Shown here one piece after another: positions 4,857 to 56,050 of a stretch of DNA of 64,000 bases. The position numbers and the translations under genes were made by a program. The stretch covers positions 1-64,000 of the forward strand of contig CP120456.1 of NCBI GenBank assembly GCA_034226945.1, written 5' to 3'. The notes below the pieces were generated by a model that had not been told where the DNA came from, made no database searches, and was given only the letters and a program-made list of their open reading frames with translations. Every line of letters begins with the position of its first letter. Within the stretch, counting starts at the first letter, position 1. This DNA is from Picochlorum sp. SENEW3 (Eukaryota).

Positions 4857-6617
4857 TTGTGGCCGTGCGTCCCTGCTATGGCCCGTGTCTCGGACTCCGA
4901 TTTGACGAGTCGCCAGGTGGTGTACACCCGGTGGCGACTGCGTGGTTTGTGTGTAGGTTCTCGCCGTGGGGCTGCGGAGGTGGTGCACAAGGTGTTTGAT
5001 CGTGGCACTGGAGCTGGGCGTGTTCGTGTGAAGCGTGTGTGGCTGGGTCGTCGTCGTCGGGGGAGGGTTGGGTCGGGTTTTTTGCCTGTCATGTTTGAAA
5101 TCGAGCCGCCAGGGGTGTCCGCACGCCGGATGCAGGACCTGGTGGCCGTGTTTGTGGGGGACCACCGCCGGGCGGGCAGCTATGCTGGCGCTCGGTGGAC
5201 GGTGCGTCCTGGTGTGTATTGCCGTGGGGGTGGGGAGGAGCGCGACTCGCCGGTGCAAGCCAGGCATCGTGCTCGGGTGATGAGCTGGAACTGCGCGGGG
5301 TGGGGCAAAGGGGCACAGGCGGGCAAGCGCAAGGCGTTTGTGCGCCTGCTGCGGCGCGAGCGTCCGGCGGTGGTGGGGCTGCAGGAGACCCACGTGGGGC
5401 TGACAGACCGCCAGGTCGAGGTCCCGGGGTACTACACGTTGAGTGCCCCGGTTCAGGATGACCTGGCGGGGTGTTGGGGGATGTGCATGCTGGTGGCACG
5501 GGGGCTGCACGTCCGAGCGTTGGACACTGGGGATGCCAACGTCCAGGCCGTGCTGGCAGGGGAAGGGGTGGTGGTGGATGCCCAGTGCGTCCTGGTGAAT
5601 GTGTACATACCAACAAGGGGGGCAGGGGGGAAAGAAACGCGACGAACCCAGGTGGTCAAGAGGCTGGGCAGCCTGGTGCAGCAGTGGTACGCCAGGTATG
5701 GAGACGCCCTGGCCGTGGTGGTCATGGGAGACTTCAACTGCCCCGACAGGGGCGACCTGGACGAGCTGCTCACCAGAGGGGAAGTTATGCTGCACCCTGG
5801 CCCGCTTCACATGACAGTAGTGGCCAACCAACACCCCACGAGGGTGTTGAAGTGCAAGGATGGTGTCAAGGAGACCACCCTGGACCACTTCATGGTGAAC
5901 ACGCCTGCTCGGAAACTGTTCAACAAACACGCCACCAGCCTACTGTCCTGCCGCGAGGACCTGCAATCGGATCATGCACCTATTGTCGTTGGCTTCAGGA
6001 GCCCAAAGGCGAAGCAGAGACAGCGAACACGAGAAGAAGGGCCCCCCTCAGCGAGTGGGGAGGAGGCCCTTGTAGAAGGACGACAGGAGGCTGCTGGAGC
6101 AGGAGGCTGGGCTGGAGCTGGAGCTGGAGATGCTGTAGAGTCGACTCACCGTGTCGGAGCGACTCCATTGGTAGACCTGGACCTCGTGGCAGCCAGGGAA
6201 CAGCAGATTGTGCATGACCCAGAGTGGCTCCACGTCGCCGTGGTCATCCATCAGGACAGAGAAGGAGGACAGCTGAGACAGGGACTGGAAGGAGCAGAGG
6301 CGCCGCCCAGCATCGCCAATCCACCCGAAGTATTTTATAGAACGGCGATGCGGGTGCTTCGCCGCCATGGGTGCATCAAAGACCCCAGAGACAGGAGGGA
6401 CCGCAGCAGACTGCAGGACAAGGACGAGCTTGGACAGAGGAAGAGGAAGAGGAAGCGCATGTCGTTGGCAGTGGCCAACGCGGTGCAAAAACGCATTAGA
6501 ATACGGAAACGAATAGAGAAAAAGAGTTCGGCCAGAACAGGGGCGCCTAGTACAGAGGAAGATGCCCAGGCACTGAGGGAGGCCACCACCAAGGCCAAAG
6601 ACCAAGGCCAAAGCTAG
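4857..6617 (+). CDS. LINE ORF segment 1: apurinic/apyrimidinic-like endonuclease
   Basis: Motifs MSWNCAG, GLQETH, VNVYIP, MGDFN, LDHFMV, SDHAPI. The segment ends because of a 13-bp tandem duplication at 6588-6613. Confidence 0.9.
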   Translation: MWPCVPAMARVSDSDLTSRQVVYTRWRLRGLCVGSRRGAAEVVHKVFDRGTGAGRVRVKRVWLGRRRRGRVGSGFLPVMFEIEPPGVSARRMQDLVAVFVGDHRRAGSYAGARWTVRPGVYCRGGGEERDSPVQARHRARVMSWNCAGWGKGAQAGKRKAFVRLLRRERPAVVGLQETHVGLTDRQVEVPGYYTLSAPVQDDLAGCWGMCMLVARGLHVRALDTGDANVQAVLAGEGVVVDAQCVLVNVYIPTRGAGGKETRRTQVVKRLGSLVQQWYARYGDALAVVVMGDFNCPDRGDLDELLTRGEVMLHPGPLHMTVVANQHPTRVLKCKDGVKETTLDHFMVNTPARKLFNKHATSLLSCREDLQSDHAPIVVGFRSPKAKQRQRTREEGPPSASGEEALVEGRQEAAGAGGWAGAGAGDAVESTHRVGATPLVDLDLVAAREQQIVHDPEWLHVAVVIHQDREGGQLRQGLEGAEAPPSIANPPEVFYRTAMRVLRRHGCIKDPRDRRDRSRLQDKDELGQRKRKRKRMSLAVANAVQKRIRIRKRIEKKSSARTGAPSTEEDAQALREATTKAKDQGQS

Positions 6618-51403: not shown

Positions 51404-52975
51404 ATGGCTGCTGCACGTCCTCTTGTGGCCGTGCAAGGATTAGACGGCACTGCCGTGGGACAGGTACGCCGACTGTGGAATTGAGGCGACGGCCAGCACC
51501 ACCTCGCGACATCCCTGCAATATATGCCATGCAAATGATCAAACAATTAATCTATATTATTTTTATACACAGGTCGAGCTTCCTGCCGTGTTCTCCGCCC
51601 CCATCCGTTCTGACATTGTCCAGACCGTCCACACCAACATGAACAAGAACAAGCGTCAGGCATACGCAGTTTCATCAAAGGCTGGTCATCAGACCGCAGC
51701 TGAATCTTGGGGTACTGGAAGGGCTGTTTCTCGTATTCCACGTGTTCCAGGAGGAGGAACTCACAGAGCAGGTGCGTTCTGTCTCGAAGGGGTCGGCCAG
51801 GATGGAAGTGGAGGCTGTCTCCACCTATCGCTGCATCCAGTGGCCCAGTATATTGAAATGTTGAAATGGTTGGGGATTTTGAATATTAGGATGGGGATTG
51901 TCTGATCATCAGATGTGGGTCACCTGCGGTCGGCTGCGCCGACTCGGGAGTCTGCAATGGGAACAGCTTTCATGTGGGTTGAAACGGGTCAATCCTGACG
52001 AATGAAGTTGACATGTTTTGATTTGTGATGACTGCAGGACAAGGAGCTTTCGGAAACATGTGCCGAGGAGGACACATGTATGCTCCAACCAAGACTTGGC
52101 GAAGGTGGCACAGAAAGATCAACGTGAACCAGAAGCGCTACGCTGTTGTGTCGGCTTTGGCCGCTTCTGCTATTCCAGCCCTGGTGATGGCTCGTGGGCA
52201 CAGGGTGGAGAACATCCCAGAGATTCCATTGGTGGTTGACGATGCTGTGGAGAGCATCACCAAGACCAAGGCTGCCATTCAGCTTTTGGCTGCCATTGGA
52301 GCCAACGACGATGTGGAGAAAGCACGTGCCTCCAAGAACCTCCGCCGTGGTAAGGGTAAGATGCGTAACCGTAGATATGTGGCCCGCCGCGGACCACTTG
52401 TGATCTCAGGAGGGTCTCCAGAGGTTGCTCGCTCCTTCCGCAACATCCCAGGAGTGGAGGTGGCAAATGTGGACAGCCTCAGCTTGCTCCAGCTCGCCCC
52501 AGGAGGTCATTTGGGTCGATTCATTATCTGGACCAAGAGTGCATTTGCTAGGCTGGACGAAATCTTCGGCACCAGTGAGACAGAGTCTTCTGTGAAGAAG
52601 GGATACAAAATCCCACGCAACATCATGACCAACCCGGATTTGGCCCGTCTGATTAACAGTGACGAGGTTCAGAGCGTAGTAGCAGCTCCAAAGGAGGGAG
52701 GACGCAAGGCTCCATTGAAGAAGAACCCACTGAGAAATCTCGGTGCCCTTCTGAAGTTGAACCCAGCTGCCAAGGCCCAGCGCCGAGCAAACTTGTTGGC
52801 TTCTGAAGAGTCTAGAGCAAAGAAGGCCAGAGAAGCCAAGCTTCAGGCTGCTAGAGCTAACCGTAATGCTGTGAAGAAGGTTTCCAAGGAATTCTACAGC
52901 AAGATGGTGACAGATGCGGACTACATTGGAGAGGATTACGATGTCTTCTCTAGATGGTTGGGTACAACCCAGTAG
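51404..52975 (+). CDS. RPL4: 60S ribosomal protein L4 (uL4); exons 51404-51463, 51573-51771, 52038-52975
   Basis: [44 protein letters not shown]. The two GT-AG introns keep the frame. Confidence 0.97.
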
Positions 52976-53068
52976 ATGGTTTTGATAGCACGAGTAAAAG
53001 TACAAAAACATAGTCAACTATTTTTATCAATCTAAGAAAATCAACATGATGTTTCTTATGTAATGGTA

Positions 53069-53204
53069 CAGTAAAAATTATAAATTTCATTAGGCCCAAT
53101 GGAAACTTCCACCGCAGGCCTCCTGTATCTTTGAGTGATGCACTGCCTGATGCTCATGTAAAAAAACCACAAACACGTGTCAGACAGCGACTGACACACC
53201 GAAT
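53069..53204 (-). ncRNA. Candidate Fanzor omega-RNA scaffold region
   Basis: Lies directly 3' of the Fanzor stop. Hairpins at 53177-53197 (7-bp perfect stem) and 53092-53121 (~12-bp bulged stem). The call rests on position and structure only. Confidence 0.4.
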
Positions 53205-54278
53205 TCATTCATCACAGCCTCTCTTCCTTTTGAATGGACTGAGCCGTTCTCCCTCGCCATTATCTTTCACTGAATAACAGTAATGGAGAAACAAATTCAA
53301 AATATTAATAGAGGCATTGATATCTCTATCCCAAACTGTTCGTATGCAATCGTTTTGTAAGCAACGTTTCATCCTGAACTGTTTTCGTAATTGGGACATT
53401 ATACCATGGCAGCAACTGCAGAGTTTGGAGGTTCTGAATTCATTCGTGACCACCACTCTACAATTCTCTGATACCTTTTTAAACAATTTTGTTGACATCA
53501 TTGGAGCGGTTCCTCTCAAAGTGCCATTTTTATCACCGTCACCATATGCAATTATCACCTTCTTCTGTTCTTCTTTATTCTTCGTGCCAGCAATTTTTGC
53601 AACAACATCTTCCATGGCTTTCTGGCGCTTACAGAACTTCCTCATCCTTTGTTTTTGGAACCACTTTGACCCATGAAAAAAGGCATTATTTATCTGAGGC
53701 CATAACTCAACTTGCTTTCTATATGCAGCAAGTGTTCTTTCAATATCTACTGTCTTGGTGGATGACAAACTTCTCCATGATGGGCAGAAAGCCGTCATTC
53801 TCTTGTTCATCTTTGCCGTATACTGTTTTTGCCCTGATAAATACCTCCATTCACCTCCTCCAATGCTGCCACTGTCGTACCTTTCTTCCTTCATTGTTTT
53901 TTCCCCTTCATCTCCTTTCCATTTTTTATGTTTAGTTTGTTTCAAAGGATCATGGTACACCCAGGTCGCAGCACTCTTTTTTCCAGGGTCCAACCCAACA
54001 ACTTTGCATTTTGCATAGTAGATTCCATCAACTTTTTCTAGTTGCATCAGATCTTTGATATCTTCATGGATCAGTGTTTGGTCATTTCTCTTGTTTATAC
54101 CAGCTAACAGATTCATCCTTTTCCGTTGTAAGCCGTCAATCAATGGATAGATCCGGGAGAACAGAACAAGGAAATCAACAGGCAATGTGACCTCTCCAAT
54201 AAGATCCTTCGGTCTTGGAAAGAGAGCAGTTGCATCATCACCCATCCCTTTTTTGCCTCGCATCTGACACACCTCCAA
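53205..54278 (-). CDS. Fanzor (eukaryotic TnpB-family RuvC endonuclease), Fanzor1-like, N-terminally short
   Basis: RuvC-I VVGLDPG, IIAYGDG, rearranged RuvC-II NEFRTSKL next to zinc ribbon CSCC..CLQNDC, RuvC-III WDRDINASINI. AT-richer than its neighbours. First ATG at 54263. Confidence 0.88.
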   Translation of the reverse strand: MEVCQMRGKKGMGDDATALFPRPKDLIGEVTLPVDFLVLFSRIYPLIDGLQRKRMNLLAGINKRNDQTLIHEDIKDLMQLEKVDGIYYAKCKVVGLDPGKKSAATWVYHDPLKQTKHKKWKGDEGEKTMKEERYDSGSIGGGEWRYLSGQKQYTAKMNKRMTAFCPSWRSLSSTKTVDIERTLAAYRKQVELWPQINNAFFHGSKWFQKQRMRKFCKRQKAMEDVVAKIAGTKNKEEQKKVIIAYGDGDKNGTLRGTAPMMSTKLFKKVSENCRVVVTNEFRTSKLCSCCHGIMSQLRKQFRMKRCLQNDCIRTVWDRDINASINILNLFLHYCYSVKDNGEGERLSPFKRKRGCDE

Positions 54279-54311
54279 GCACCATTTTCCATACGTAATG
54301 GTAATTTAACT

Positions 54312-56050
54312 TTAATTCGAAGTCTCCTTCGAGCTCGATACATGTATTTGTTTTGCACTAGTATCCTCTTCTGCTTTCTCGGGTTCTTCCAATTCTTGCT
54401 TCTCCTCGTGCTCCTCCATGTCTGCTGGAACTTCGTCTGAGAACAGGATTCTTGCTGCGACTTTCAGATCACCACCTGCTCGAACCGCAGCTGCAAAAGC
54501 AGGCAACGACTCTCGAGCAACGACTCGAAGAGTTTTCCAGTTGTACATGATGTCCTTGGAAACGCTAAACATTTCATCCTGCTCGGGATCGTTCATCTCA
54601 TCGATAACAGGGCCCATAAGCTGCCGCAAGTTTGTGAATCCTCCTCTGTCGTCAGCTGCCAACACTGCACACATATTCAAGATAATGCATTGAAAAATTT
54701 CCATCAGGATACAACAATACCGACTCCTGCGTGTAGCAACGTACTTGTGAGGTTGTCCTCGGTTTGATTCCATAGCCTTGTGAGTTCAGGGACCCCAAGA
54801 TCTACCCCAAACACTGCATCAGGCGATTTCTTCATCTTTTTTGGCTCGGGATATAAACGCACATCTTTCAATTGCTCTACATCGTATTTTTGAGAAGTTT
54901 GGAAAGCCTCTGCTGGACAACCAGCCTGCTTCCATAGATTCCATGCCATCTCTCCATCCAAGACCTTTCGAATCGCATCTGCAAATGTGACTCCATTCTC
55001 TGGAGTTTGTTTCAACTGATGATAGATCTTTTGCTTCATATGGATCATGCTTCCAAGAACTCTCTCAGTCGGCTTTTTGCTCACCCAATCTTTCAGCAAT
55101 GGATCCTCCATCCACCCTATCAAAATCAGGCTCTGCACCAGAATCGTTCTCCGAAACGTGGCATCCCTGATTTGAAGGGGCAGAAGACGAGCGCTGCTGA
55201 GGTACTTGACAGATGAACCATCACCACTTTTGCAGAGATTGTCTTGAATACTTGTGTTCGATCCTGCGGCTTCCGTAACTGTCACACTGGTGGAATTGAA
55301 TTTTTTGAGAACCAACTTGAGAGACTCCGAGATGGAATCCCAAGCCCCAGGGGACAACGCTAATCGGGGATCAGAGAACCATTTCTGCAGTCCCCAAAAT
55401 GTTTTGTAAAATTCTATATCTATAGGCCGTCCTTCGGCATCCAAACTGCCCTCCTTGACCTCCTCAAGGGGTGTCATGTTGTCTATGTGGAAGCTGCCAT
55501 ACATGTTCACCCCAGACCTTTCAGTCAATGGCAAAAATTTTGCTAGGAATATCAGAACCCTGCCACACAACTCTGCGTCCTGACTTTTTGACAATCTCTT
55601 CAGCAGCACATTGCAGGTCCTTAGCAGGGTATACTGAGATTTCTGCCGCACCCCTGGCGTGGTGAACATGTCCATTCGGGAGTCCAAGTAGTCAAATATA
55701 TCAATACTGTTCATTGTCGTAGTTACCTCCATCAAAACCTCCAAGCACATCGCTGGAGCGGATAAATCAATCAGAGAGGAGTGGTGGAGAGCCATATTCA
55801 TCACTGAATCGATGAAGAAACTGACCATCCCCACCCCATTCTCCTCCAGTTTCATGACTGAGCACCCCTCTTCCCTGGCCATCCGGGCAAGCTGTAACAC
55901 TGTTGCCTGTAGAGCGTGGGATAAGAGAAATGCATCGTCACCTGTAAGTGCATCCACCGTCTTACGGCCCCTGGTGTCACACAAAACTCTAATGAACTCT
56001 TCTCCGCACTCCCCAGACGAGTCACTGGACTCGCTTGCATGCGTCTTCAA
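54312..56050 (-). CDS. THOC1: THO complex subunit 1 (THOC1/HPR1); intron 54744-54665; 5' end uncertain
   Basis: LLRTCNVLLKRLSK..CGRVLIFLAKFLPLTERSGVN, FYKTFWGLQKWF, KYLSS..LQIRDATFRR, LGVPELTRLW, YNWKTLR. Confidence 0.92.

Follow-up and report, generated by a model that had tools for sequence, protein, structure and literature searches.

A 5′-truncated copy of a Fanzor1 transposon gene between RPL4 and THOC1 in Picochlorum sp. SENEW3

Among described systems, those closest to the locus reported here are the Fanzor1 nuclease SpuFz1 and the eukaryotic transposons that carry Fanzor1 genes. In the account of SpuFz1 given by Saito et al. (2023; PMC10432273), the recognition (REC) and wedge (WED) domains read the target-adjacent motif (TAM) and, together with RuvC, form the channel for the guide-target duplex. 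The portions of Bao and Jurka (2013; PMC3627910) that bear on this locus concern elements with Fanzor1 as their only gene, Mariner ends, and duplicated TA (for example, PUl-4), as well as the Chlamydomonas Fanzor1 elements CRe-1, 2, and 3, which are often truncated at the 5′ end and intact at the 3′ end, with flanking duplications of variable length (~7–19 base pairs, bp); those authors raise the question of whether the Fanzor protein is responsible. Here, we describe a Fanzor1 open reading frame (ORF) of the green alga Picochlorum sp. SENEW3, analyzed in a stretch of 64,000 nucleotides (nt), called the window hereafter (positions 1 to 64,000 of the forward strand of contig CP120456.1, assembly GCA_034226945.1), in which it occupies 53205..54278 of the minus strand between the genes for RPL4 and THOC1. 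An earlier note, made from the letters alone, had read this ORF as a catalytically intact but N-terminally short Fanzor nuclease that was either a recent truncated insertion or a minimal or domesticated protein. We find that the ORF is a 5′-truncated copy of a Fanzor1 gene of ~806–814 amino acids, and that it very probably represents the right-hand 1.2 kb of a ~2.7-kb Fanzor1 transposon, a young and neutral remnant that arrived recently.

The ORF extends over 357 codons with no internal stop (ORF listing) and contains all of the motifs that had been named for it. Placement of these motifs in the translation gave D97, E280, C287/C290, C306/C311, and D317/D319 as the key residues: a DPG motif at residue 97 (D97-P-G, a column that is invariant across 30 aligned relatives); GDGD at residue 246, which is the canonical RuvC-II strand; the rearranged RuvC-II glutamate in E280-FRTSKL-C287-xx-C290, six residues ahead of the first CxxC; a second zinc pair, C306-x4-C311; and DRDINA at 317–322, which holds the RuvC-III residues D317-R-D319. 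The combination that marks Fanzor1, a non-acidic residue at the canonical RuvC-II position and a rearranged glutamate, is present. When compared to 39 relatives, the ORF keeps the family consensus in 41 of the 42 columns that are at least 90% conserved, its sole departure being Q308 where the family has N. Pfam placed PF07282 (Cas12f1-like TNB) on residues 271–326 (E 2.1e-8; 34.6 bits with a cut-off of 26.3), and the TnpB models of NCBIfam matched weakly (24.3 bits with a cut-off of 100). A phmmer search of the ORF against PDB sequences returned only chance RING2 matches (E 0.06–0.1); a profile of the family (alignment A1) reached GtFz1 among the PDB sequences (E 5.1e-4). The start as listed is a TTG, and the earliest ATG is codon 6 (54263-54261).

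The AlphaFold model of the ORF (predicted local distance difference test score, pLDDT, 80.9; predicted template modeling score, pTM, 0.74) agreed with the proposed Fanzor identity, as the first seven Foldseek matches in the PDB were all Fanzor1 (SpuFz, PpFz, GtFz; E 6.7e-9 to 1.8e-6), followed at lower ranks by Fanzor2, Cas12f, and TnpB. Structural alignment with VIA-align placed residues 65–352 of the model on residues 362–633 of the SpuFz1 chain (PDB 8gkh; Z 16.8; root-mean-square deviation 3.9; 240 aligned residues), that is, on its nuclease (NUC) lobe, and the RuvC fold that the earlier note had asked structure prediction to find was thus recovered. Because the model aligns only with this part of SpuFz1, the ORF is predicted to be the RuvC and zinc-ribbon (NUC) lobe alone. 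The full-length relative P0014, modeled with a pLDDT of 79.7, aligned with SpuFz1 end to end (model 33–801 on chain 18–633; Z 22.3) and also with PpFz (Z 21.4) and GtFz (Z 18.6), the best non-Fanzor chain reaching 12.0; its low-confidence linker (441–481) is where the window copy begins. The suspicion that the N-terminal region is missing was therefore well founded, and the description of the ORF as catalytically intact stands for its residues and not for the protein as a whole, as the REC lobe is gone. Since this lobe is absent from both the ORF and the window, we regard the window copy as a fragment and not as a complete member of Fanzor1. The product of the ORF would be without the domains that read the TAM and hold the duplex (REC and WED).

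The extent of the truncation was apparent from the full-length relatives. A search among proteins of similar length gave 12 matches out of 844 candidates, including one (P0009) that covers only ORF residues 1–80 and has ~480 additional residues upstream, and a search among longer proteins gave 61 relatives out of 1733 candidates, nearly all of them 700–830 amino acids long. The closest named relative is the hypothetical protein M9434_003399 of Picochlorum sp. BPE23 (KAI8112075.1, hereafter P0013; 731 amino acids), which is 99% identical over the whole ORF, and another member of its cluster (P0076; 809 amino acids) is identical at 352 of 357 positions over its residues 453–809. Although both share 99% identity with the ORF over all 357 residues, the two proteins also have the N-terminal lobe and are complete or almost complete in length. 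P0014 (806 amino acids) and P0015 (814 amino acids) are 92% and 82% identical to the ORF, respectively. In an alignment of 30 sequences, the full-length relatives consist of a K/R-rich N-terminus, ~400 conserved residues, and a linker of variable length, and it is within this linker that the ORF begins; the KKRK-type N-terminus, a nuclear localization signal (NLS), is seen in the full-length rows and not in the window ORF. Searching the window with seven relatives (tblastn) revealed a single locus, the next best match being no better than E 0.5, and no trace of the N-terminal part (NLS, WED, and REC; ~445 residues); homology to the full-length copies starts at ~54295/54294, 17 nt past the THOC1 stop. 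With P0014 as the single query, none of 265 pattern matches in metagenome contigs and none of 14 in viral contigs was confirmed, and a giant-virus source was not seen in the latter. We define here a marine green-algal Fanzor1 family of ~810 amino acids, whose elements have ends of the Tc1/mariner type, target TA, and share a conserved non-coding region on the 3′ side; in a limited literature search, none of the titles listed concerned a family of this kind.

When compared to SpuFz1 (PDB 8gkh, 9cey, 9cez), the window copy shares the fold of the NUC lobe, the DPG aspartate, the glutamate before CxxC, the zinc ribbon, and the aspartate of the RD motif, but sequence identity is only ~15%, residues 1 to ~360 of SpuFz1 (WED and REC) have no counterpart in the window copy, and in the family RuvC-I and the glutamate are set further apart by a longer insert (182 residues separate them), and the second zinc pair takes the form Cx4C. 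The Fanzor pattern of Yoon et al. (2023; PMC10711439), in the form quoted from that paper, matched none of 40 family sequences, and a relaxed version of it (wider spacing, C-x2-4-C) matched 33 of the 40, the window ORF included; the quoted form misses the family because of the 182 residues from DPG to the glutamate and the Cx4C second zinc pair. The RuvC/TNB core is also common to the ORF and the bacterial ISDra2 TnpB (8h1j; Z 10.2, model 76–336 on chain 181–378). Unlike the ORF, ISDra2 TnpB keeps its RuvC-II glutamate at the canonical position, and it comes from an IS200/IS605 element that lacks inverted repeats.

Next, we examined the parent element. When metagenome contigs were scanned using the family alignment and C-terminal peptide patterns, 75 loci were obtained, and many of the family contigs are 2.7–4.3 kb long and end 159–217 nt past the stop codon, as assembled repeats do. 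The parent unit is ~2.7 kb long with CAGT...ACTG inverted ends between TA flanks, and no transposase is encoded in it. On its 3′ side, the family has a motif at the stop codon, AAGATACAG ~80 nt further on, and a terminal ...ACTG followed by TA, a layout that is present in eight of 11 sequences (the window, L001, L002, L006, L009, L010, L011, and L012). In the window, this conserved 3′ non-coding region, a candidate omega-RNA scaffold together with the right inverted repeat, spans 53069..53204 of the minus strand, with GAATTCGG at the stop (53199-53206), AAGATACAG at 53123-53131, and the terminal ...ACTG at 53069-53072. The candidate omega-RNA region folds with a z-score of only -2.1, and Rfam returned no match at E up to 1 in 52900-54400. 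A left inverted repeat, matching the right end in reverse complement, was present in three of the six loci in which it could be searched for (L007/L006; L009, with 29 of 30 positions; and L012), 93–196 nt ahead of the ATG and with TA before it every time. At L012, a paralogous empty site 2.2 kb away (5338-5385) indicated that the duplication made on insertion is TA; the 22-nt duplication around this element is a pre-existing tandem repeat, as it is present in the paralogous empty site. CAGT/ACTG ends with TA flanks are a hallmark of Tc1/mariner elements. In all likelihood, the family element is a non-autonomous transposon with Tc1/mariner-type ends and Fanzor1 as its only gene. A 9-bp duplication made by a transposase of the Mutator/Merlin type is excluded by the CAGT/ACTG ends and TA of the family, and a Helitron2 or one-ended rolling-circle origin was also rejected, as no T-T rule holds after the right end and inverted repeats are present. 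On the 3′ side of two other loci, L004 (3200-3220) and L005 (4140-4165), elements that are 98% identical diverge abruptly directly after AAGATACA, past which their sequences differ, yet each can fold back on ATACA, as a perfect palindrome of 18 nt in L004 and as a stem of 6 bp in L005; either a variable terminal hairpin or different flanks may account for this.

With respect to the elements described by Bao and Jurka, the family resembles the PUl-4 type in having one Fanzor1 gene and no transposase, inverted ends of the Tc1/mariner kind, and TA flanks. It differs from that type, as far as their description goes, in host group (marine green algae and metagenomes) and in sequence family, and the window has only the right-hand 45% of such an element. 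The window copy is also similar to CRe-1, 2, and 3 of Chlamydomonas reinhardtii in its 5′ truncation, its intact 3′ end, and flank duplications of at least 7 bp. By the same source, however, the ends of the CRe elements are of the Helitron2 type and their insertion sites follow T-rich tetranucleotides, whereas the present family has CAGT/ACTG ends and TA targets.

In the window, transposon-derived DNA occupies ~1,226 nt (53069..54294, minus strand), truncated on its 5′ side in the REC-NUC linker and ending in an intact right end (...ACTG), as judged from contigs of four sequencing runs (X5, X6, X7, and X15) and tblastn. The TA beside the right end (53067..53068, minus strand) corresponds to the target-site duplication of the family, the relatives L009, L012, and L007/L006 having the form TA-CAGT...ACTG-TA. 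A repeat search together with the contigs delimited two copies of a 9-nt direct repeat, TACCATTAC, both given on the minus strand: the right copy (53060..53068) is made up of the TA and seven bases of host flank, and the left copy (54295..54303; also delimited by an X6 contig) consists of TA and then a 7-nt copy of the right flank, placed before the internal breakpoint. Beyond the nine exact letters, the junction regions are still alike at 16 of 20 positions. The RPL4 stop is found 92 nt beyond the TA at the right end, and on the other side the insert begins 17 nt behind the THOC1 stop, without left end, promoter, or leader.

We aligned the contigs of the four runs, three from related organisms (X5, X6, X7) and one from a marine metatranscriptome (X15), on 52500-55000 of the window; stretches with no contig cover are 53004-53171 and everything beyond 54348 for X15, and 54096-54347 for X5. 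In X7, a contig of 24,152 nt that includes both flanks has an empty site, 53063 being joined to 54312 with five other letters between them. In X6, 54295 and 53059 meet in one contig, where nine letters fit either side, and a second empty allele joins 53068 to 54331; the depths of the two alleles (130.4 and 101.7, respectively, vs. ~203–222 in the flanks) are as for two haplotypes. In this second X6 allele, nine other letters replace 54312-54330, that is, the last THOC1 codons and the stop, which would alter the C-terminal tail of THOC1. Further contigs of X6, X7, and X15 match up to 54294/54295 and then continue into upstream Fanzor coding sequence, their translated ends continuing the P0014 protein, and further contigs of X5 and X6 match up to 53066/53067 and then enter other flanks. 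Because the contigs run on past both points, those genomes have full-length copies at other sites, and the right end proper is at 53067. A 128-nt contig of X5 covers the filled 3′ junction (52965-53092) with no differences, and runs X1–X4 hold 0.95–1.00 of the sampled words of the whole stretch. The empty sites in X6 and X7, the copies elsewhere, and the X5 junction contig together indicate that the insert is real, recent, and not fixed. The insertion is polymorphic among close relatives, being filled in the lineage of the window and of one close relative. Of the two origins offered in the earlier note, a recent truncated insertion is thus the one that holds, with empty sites in two related organisms and near-identical full-length copies of ~809 amino acids.

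Several other features of these alignments were recorded. A low-depth X5 contig (depth 2.6) ends at 53050 in letters that match neither the filled nor the empty form. The 24 differences listed inside the ORF comprise 12 synonymous and 12 other changes, and since lineages are mixed in this count and thirty further differences fall outside it, nothing follows from it for the window copy. Contigs of the X15 marine metatranscriptome are ~95% identical to the ORF and run into full-length N-terminal coding sequence, one of them ending at most 3 nt from the stop, which may reflect marine transcription of a full-length relative, the alternative being carry-over of DNA. When compared to X5, X6, and X7, the window has one extra base at 53160 (in a T run) and one at 54698 (in the THOC1 intron, beside a T run); each may be a real difference or a homopolymer error of the assembly, and neither is in a coding frame.

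We propose that the insertion took place recently in the narrow 3′-to-3′ spacer between THOC1 and RPL4, and that a double-strand break there was most likely repaired by copying a full-length element inwards, beginning at its right end. This synthesis would have halted after ~1.2 kb and the end would have been joined, either as abortive gap repair or as synthesis-dependent strand annealing followed by end joining. Absent from the copy are the left inverted repeat, promoter, 5′ leader, NLS, and REC lobe (WED and REC); it retains the NUC lobe, including every catalytic residue and zinc ligand, as well as the conserved 3′ non-coding region and the right end. Break repair is likelier than a transposase cut because the left junction repeats 7–9 nt of the right flank and the breakpoint is internal to the element. 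The break itself may have been made by a transposase, by chance, or by a Fanzor nuclease, among which a single junction cannot tell. Most likely, the fragment makes no working nuclease and is untranslated and inert as a nuclease, since it has no promoter of its own, is situated behind the THOC1 stop, and is missing the parts that read the TAM and hold the guide-target duplex. RNA from its whole 3′ non-coding region may nevertheless be usable in trans by full-length proteins.

Some observations weigh against this interpretation. The simple right-end pattern is departed from in L004, L005, and L014, the left inverted repeat was not found in three of the six searchable relatives, and the repair mechanism is deduced from a single junction. 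Support for the filled 5′ junction comes only from the window and the word share of X1–X4, runs that may be the source sample. Moreover, the frame is fully open and keeps all but one of the 42 conserved columns, as would also fit a functional product, and read-through from THOC1 may occur, as may translation that begins with the codon-6 ATG; an intact frame is, on the other hand, expected anyway because the copy is so young. Finally, no full-length allele was seen at the insertion site, which also counts against the homing hypothesis discussed below.

Two further 5′-truncated copies with an intact right end were found among the metagenome loci (L011 and L016/L017); since the search patterns were C-terminal, an excess of 3′ parts is expected among the loci and nothing follows from it on frequency. 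The copies at L011 (1215-1902) and L017 (2885-3553) lack the protein's residues up to about 335 and 652, respectively, and share the right end and ~125 nt of 3′ flank, their 5′ flanks being unrelated. The L011 frame has a new hydrophobic N-terminus (protein P0006). At the L017 junction, there is a nearby 10-nt repeat without a clean copy of the right flank. L033/L034/L028 was rejected as a simple truncation; it is one locus with a fold-back rearrangement, in which (L033, 2557-2814) a copy, in inverted orientation, of the ~95 nt usually found after the stop lies immediately ahead of the last ~56 Fanzor codons.

The junction could also be a by-product of Fanzor-guided homing, to which we give a small chance. 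Under this hypothesis, a full-length element would formerly have been present at this TA on one homologue, and an omega-RNA with the flank beside the right end as its guide would have sent the nuclease to the empty homologue. The cut would have fallen a few nt 3′ of the TA, inside the flank that matches the guide; repair would have copied from the filled allele and aborted after 1.2 kb, and the left break end would have kept 7 nt of the target, giving rise to the duplication. An exact right junction, an internal left junction, and a 7-nt copy of the right flank after the TA would be expected if the DNA broke on the right side of the TA, and the junction regions are alike beyond the repeat itself (the 16 of 20 positions given above). 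The two X6 alleles, each at about half the flank depth, suggest a diploid organism, where one allele could serve in the repair of the other, and both L011 and L016/L017 and, by the description cited above, the CRe elements of Chlamydomonas show the same 5′-truncated and 3′-intact form, with variable duplications in the CRe case. However, breaks initiated by a transposase can give the same junction, the L017 junction is without the clean right-flank copy, and the C-terminal search patterns by themselves lead to an excess of 3′ parts.

That the fragment is a minimal or domesticated Fanzor, a NUC-lobe protein of 352–357 amino acids that is made and kept by selection (for instance, with a partner or in regulating full-length copies), is very unlikely. 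The open frame, the presence of all catalytic and zinc ligands, and the confident fold of the C-terminal lobe would agree with such a role, and full-length proteins could still draw in trans on an omega-RNA from the intact 3′ non-coding region. But the open frame needs no selection, given that the ORF is 99% identical to mobile full-length copies; the insert has neither promoter nor leader and begins 17 nt past the THOC1 stop, the REC lobe and NLS are missing, and the exact 352-amino-acid product is absent among ~15 billion predicted proteins. Domestication fails on synteny because the RPL4 and THOC1 flanks are joined without the insert in X6 and X7 contigs, and we reject it. An assembly artefact, in which a repeat copy was misjoined into the RPL4-THOC1 spacer, is hardly credible. 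The element is multi-copy, contigs of other runs break at its ends, and the single extra bases at 53160 and 54698 suggest some indel errors; on the other side are the independent X5 contig over the 3′ junction, the word content of X1–X4, and an insert that is bounded by an exact 9-nt repeat which is single in the empty allele. We therefore retain the interpretation of the ORF as a young, truncated transposon copy.

Both neighbors named for the ORF were verified by Pfam matches. RPL4 (52025-52975, plus strand; PF14374, E 2.3e-26; PF00573, E 2.8e-23) converges on the insert with its stop codon at 52973..52975, and the N-terminal part of the gene is in an upstream frame (51588-51905, plus strand), which implies at least one intron. 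THOC1 (54312-56050, minus strand; PF11957, E 1.5e-63) ends in a TAA at 54312..54314, the first transposon-derived base being 17 nt further downstream, and its overlapping frames (54704-56050 and 54312-54773) are joined over an 80-nt GT..AG intron in phase 1 (54665-54744, minus strand). An extra in-frame TAA (54306-54308, minus strand) is also located between THOC1 and the Fanzor frame; a THOC1-Fanzor fusion or read-through protein was considered, as the frames agree, and rejected, as the two TAA codons (54312-14 and 54306-08) intervene. G+C content is 0.38–0.42 in the ORF, 0.55 in RPL4, and 0.46–0.48 in THOC1. TGTAA is the poly(A) signal in green algae. One such motif (53059-53063, plus strand) is present 84 nt past the RPL4 stop and overlaps the right repeat copy; if it is the poly(A) signal of RPL4, the insert is directly behind it and RPL4 transcripts would end within the right end of the transposon. 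The genome in the window is gene-dense with few and short introns, and the wider neighbors (ABC-F, a RAP-domain protein, mTERF, PP2C, a signal peptide peptidase, a BAR-domain protein, and PsbQ) are typical of a green alga. Consistent with the earlier remark that no transposase is nearby, there was no match to a transposase family among 18 ORFs scanned in 37–64 kb (6 and 12 proteins, the second batch covering ORFs of at least 150 amino acids).

As such, the finding, a Fanzor1 transposon copy that is young and broken and sits among the dense genes of an algal genome, carries little weight. It does indicate that an intact-looking nuclease ORF among housekeeping genes need not be domesticated, and the filled and empty alleles among close relatives provide material for experiments. 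The left junction that repeats the right flank, as in the truncated Fanzor1 copies of Chlamydomonas described in the source cited above, bears on the role of Fanzor for eukaryotic transposons. If the homing hypothesis were true, the window copy together with the CRe elements would suggest that green-algal Fanzor1 elements owe their spread or persistence to copying that is started by the nuclease and anchored in the right end, regardless of the transposase family to which their ends belong. In that case, the filled/empty polymorphism among Picochlorum-like strains would make homing testable, and the locus would be of real interest.

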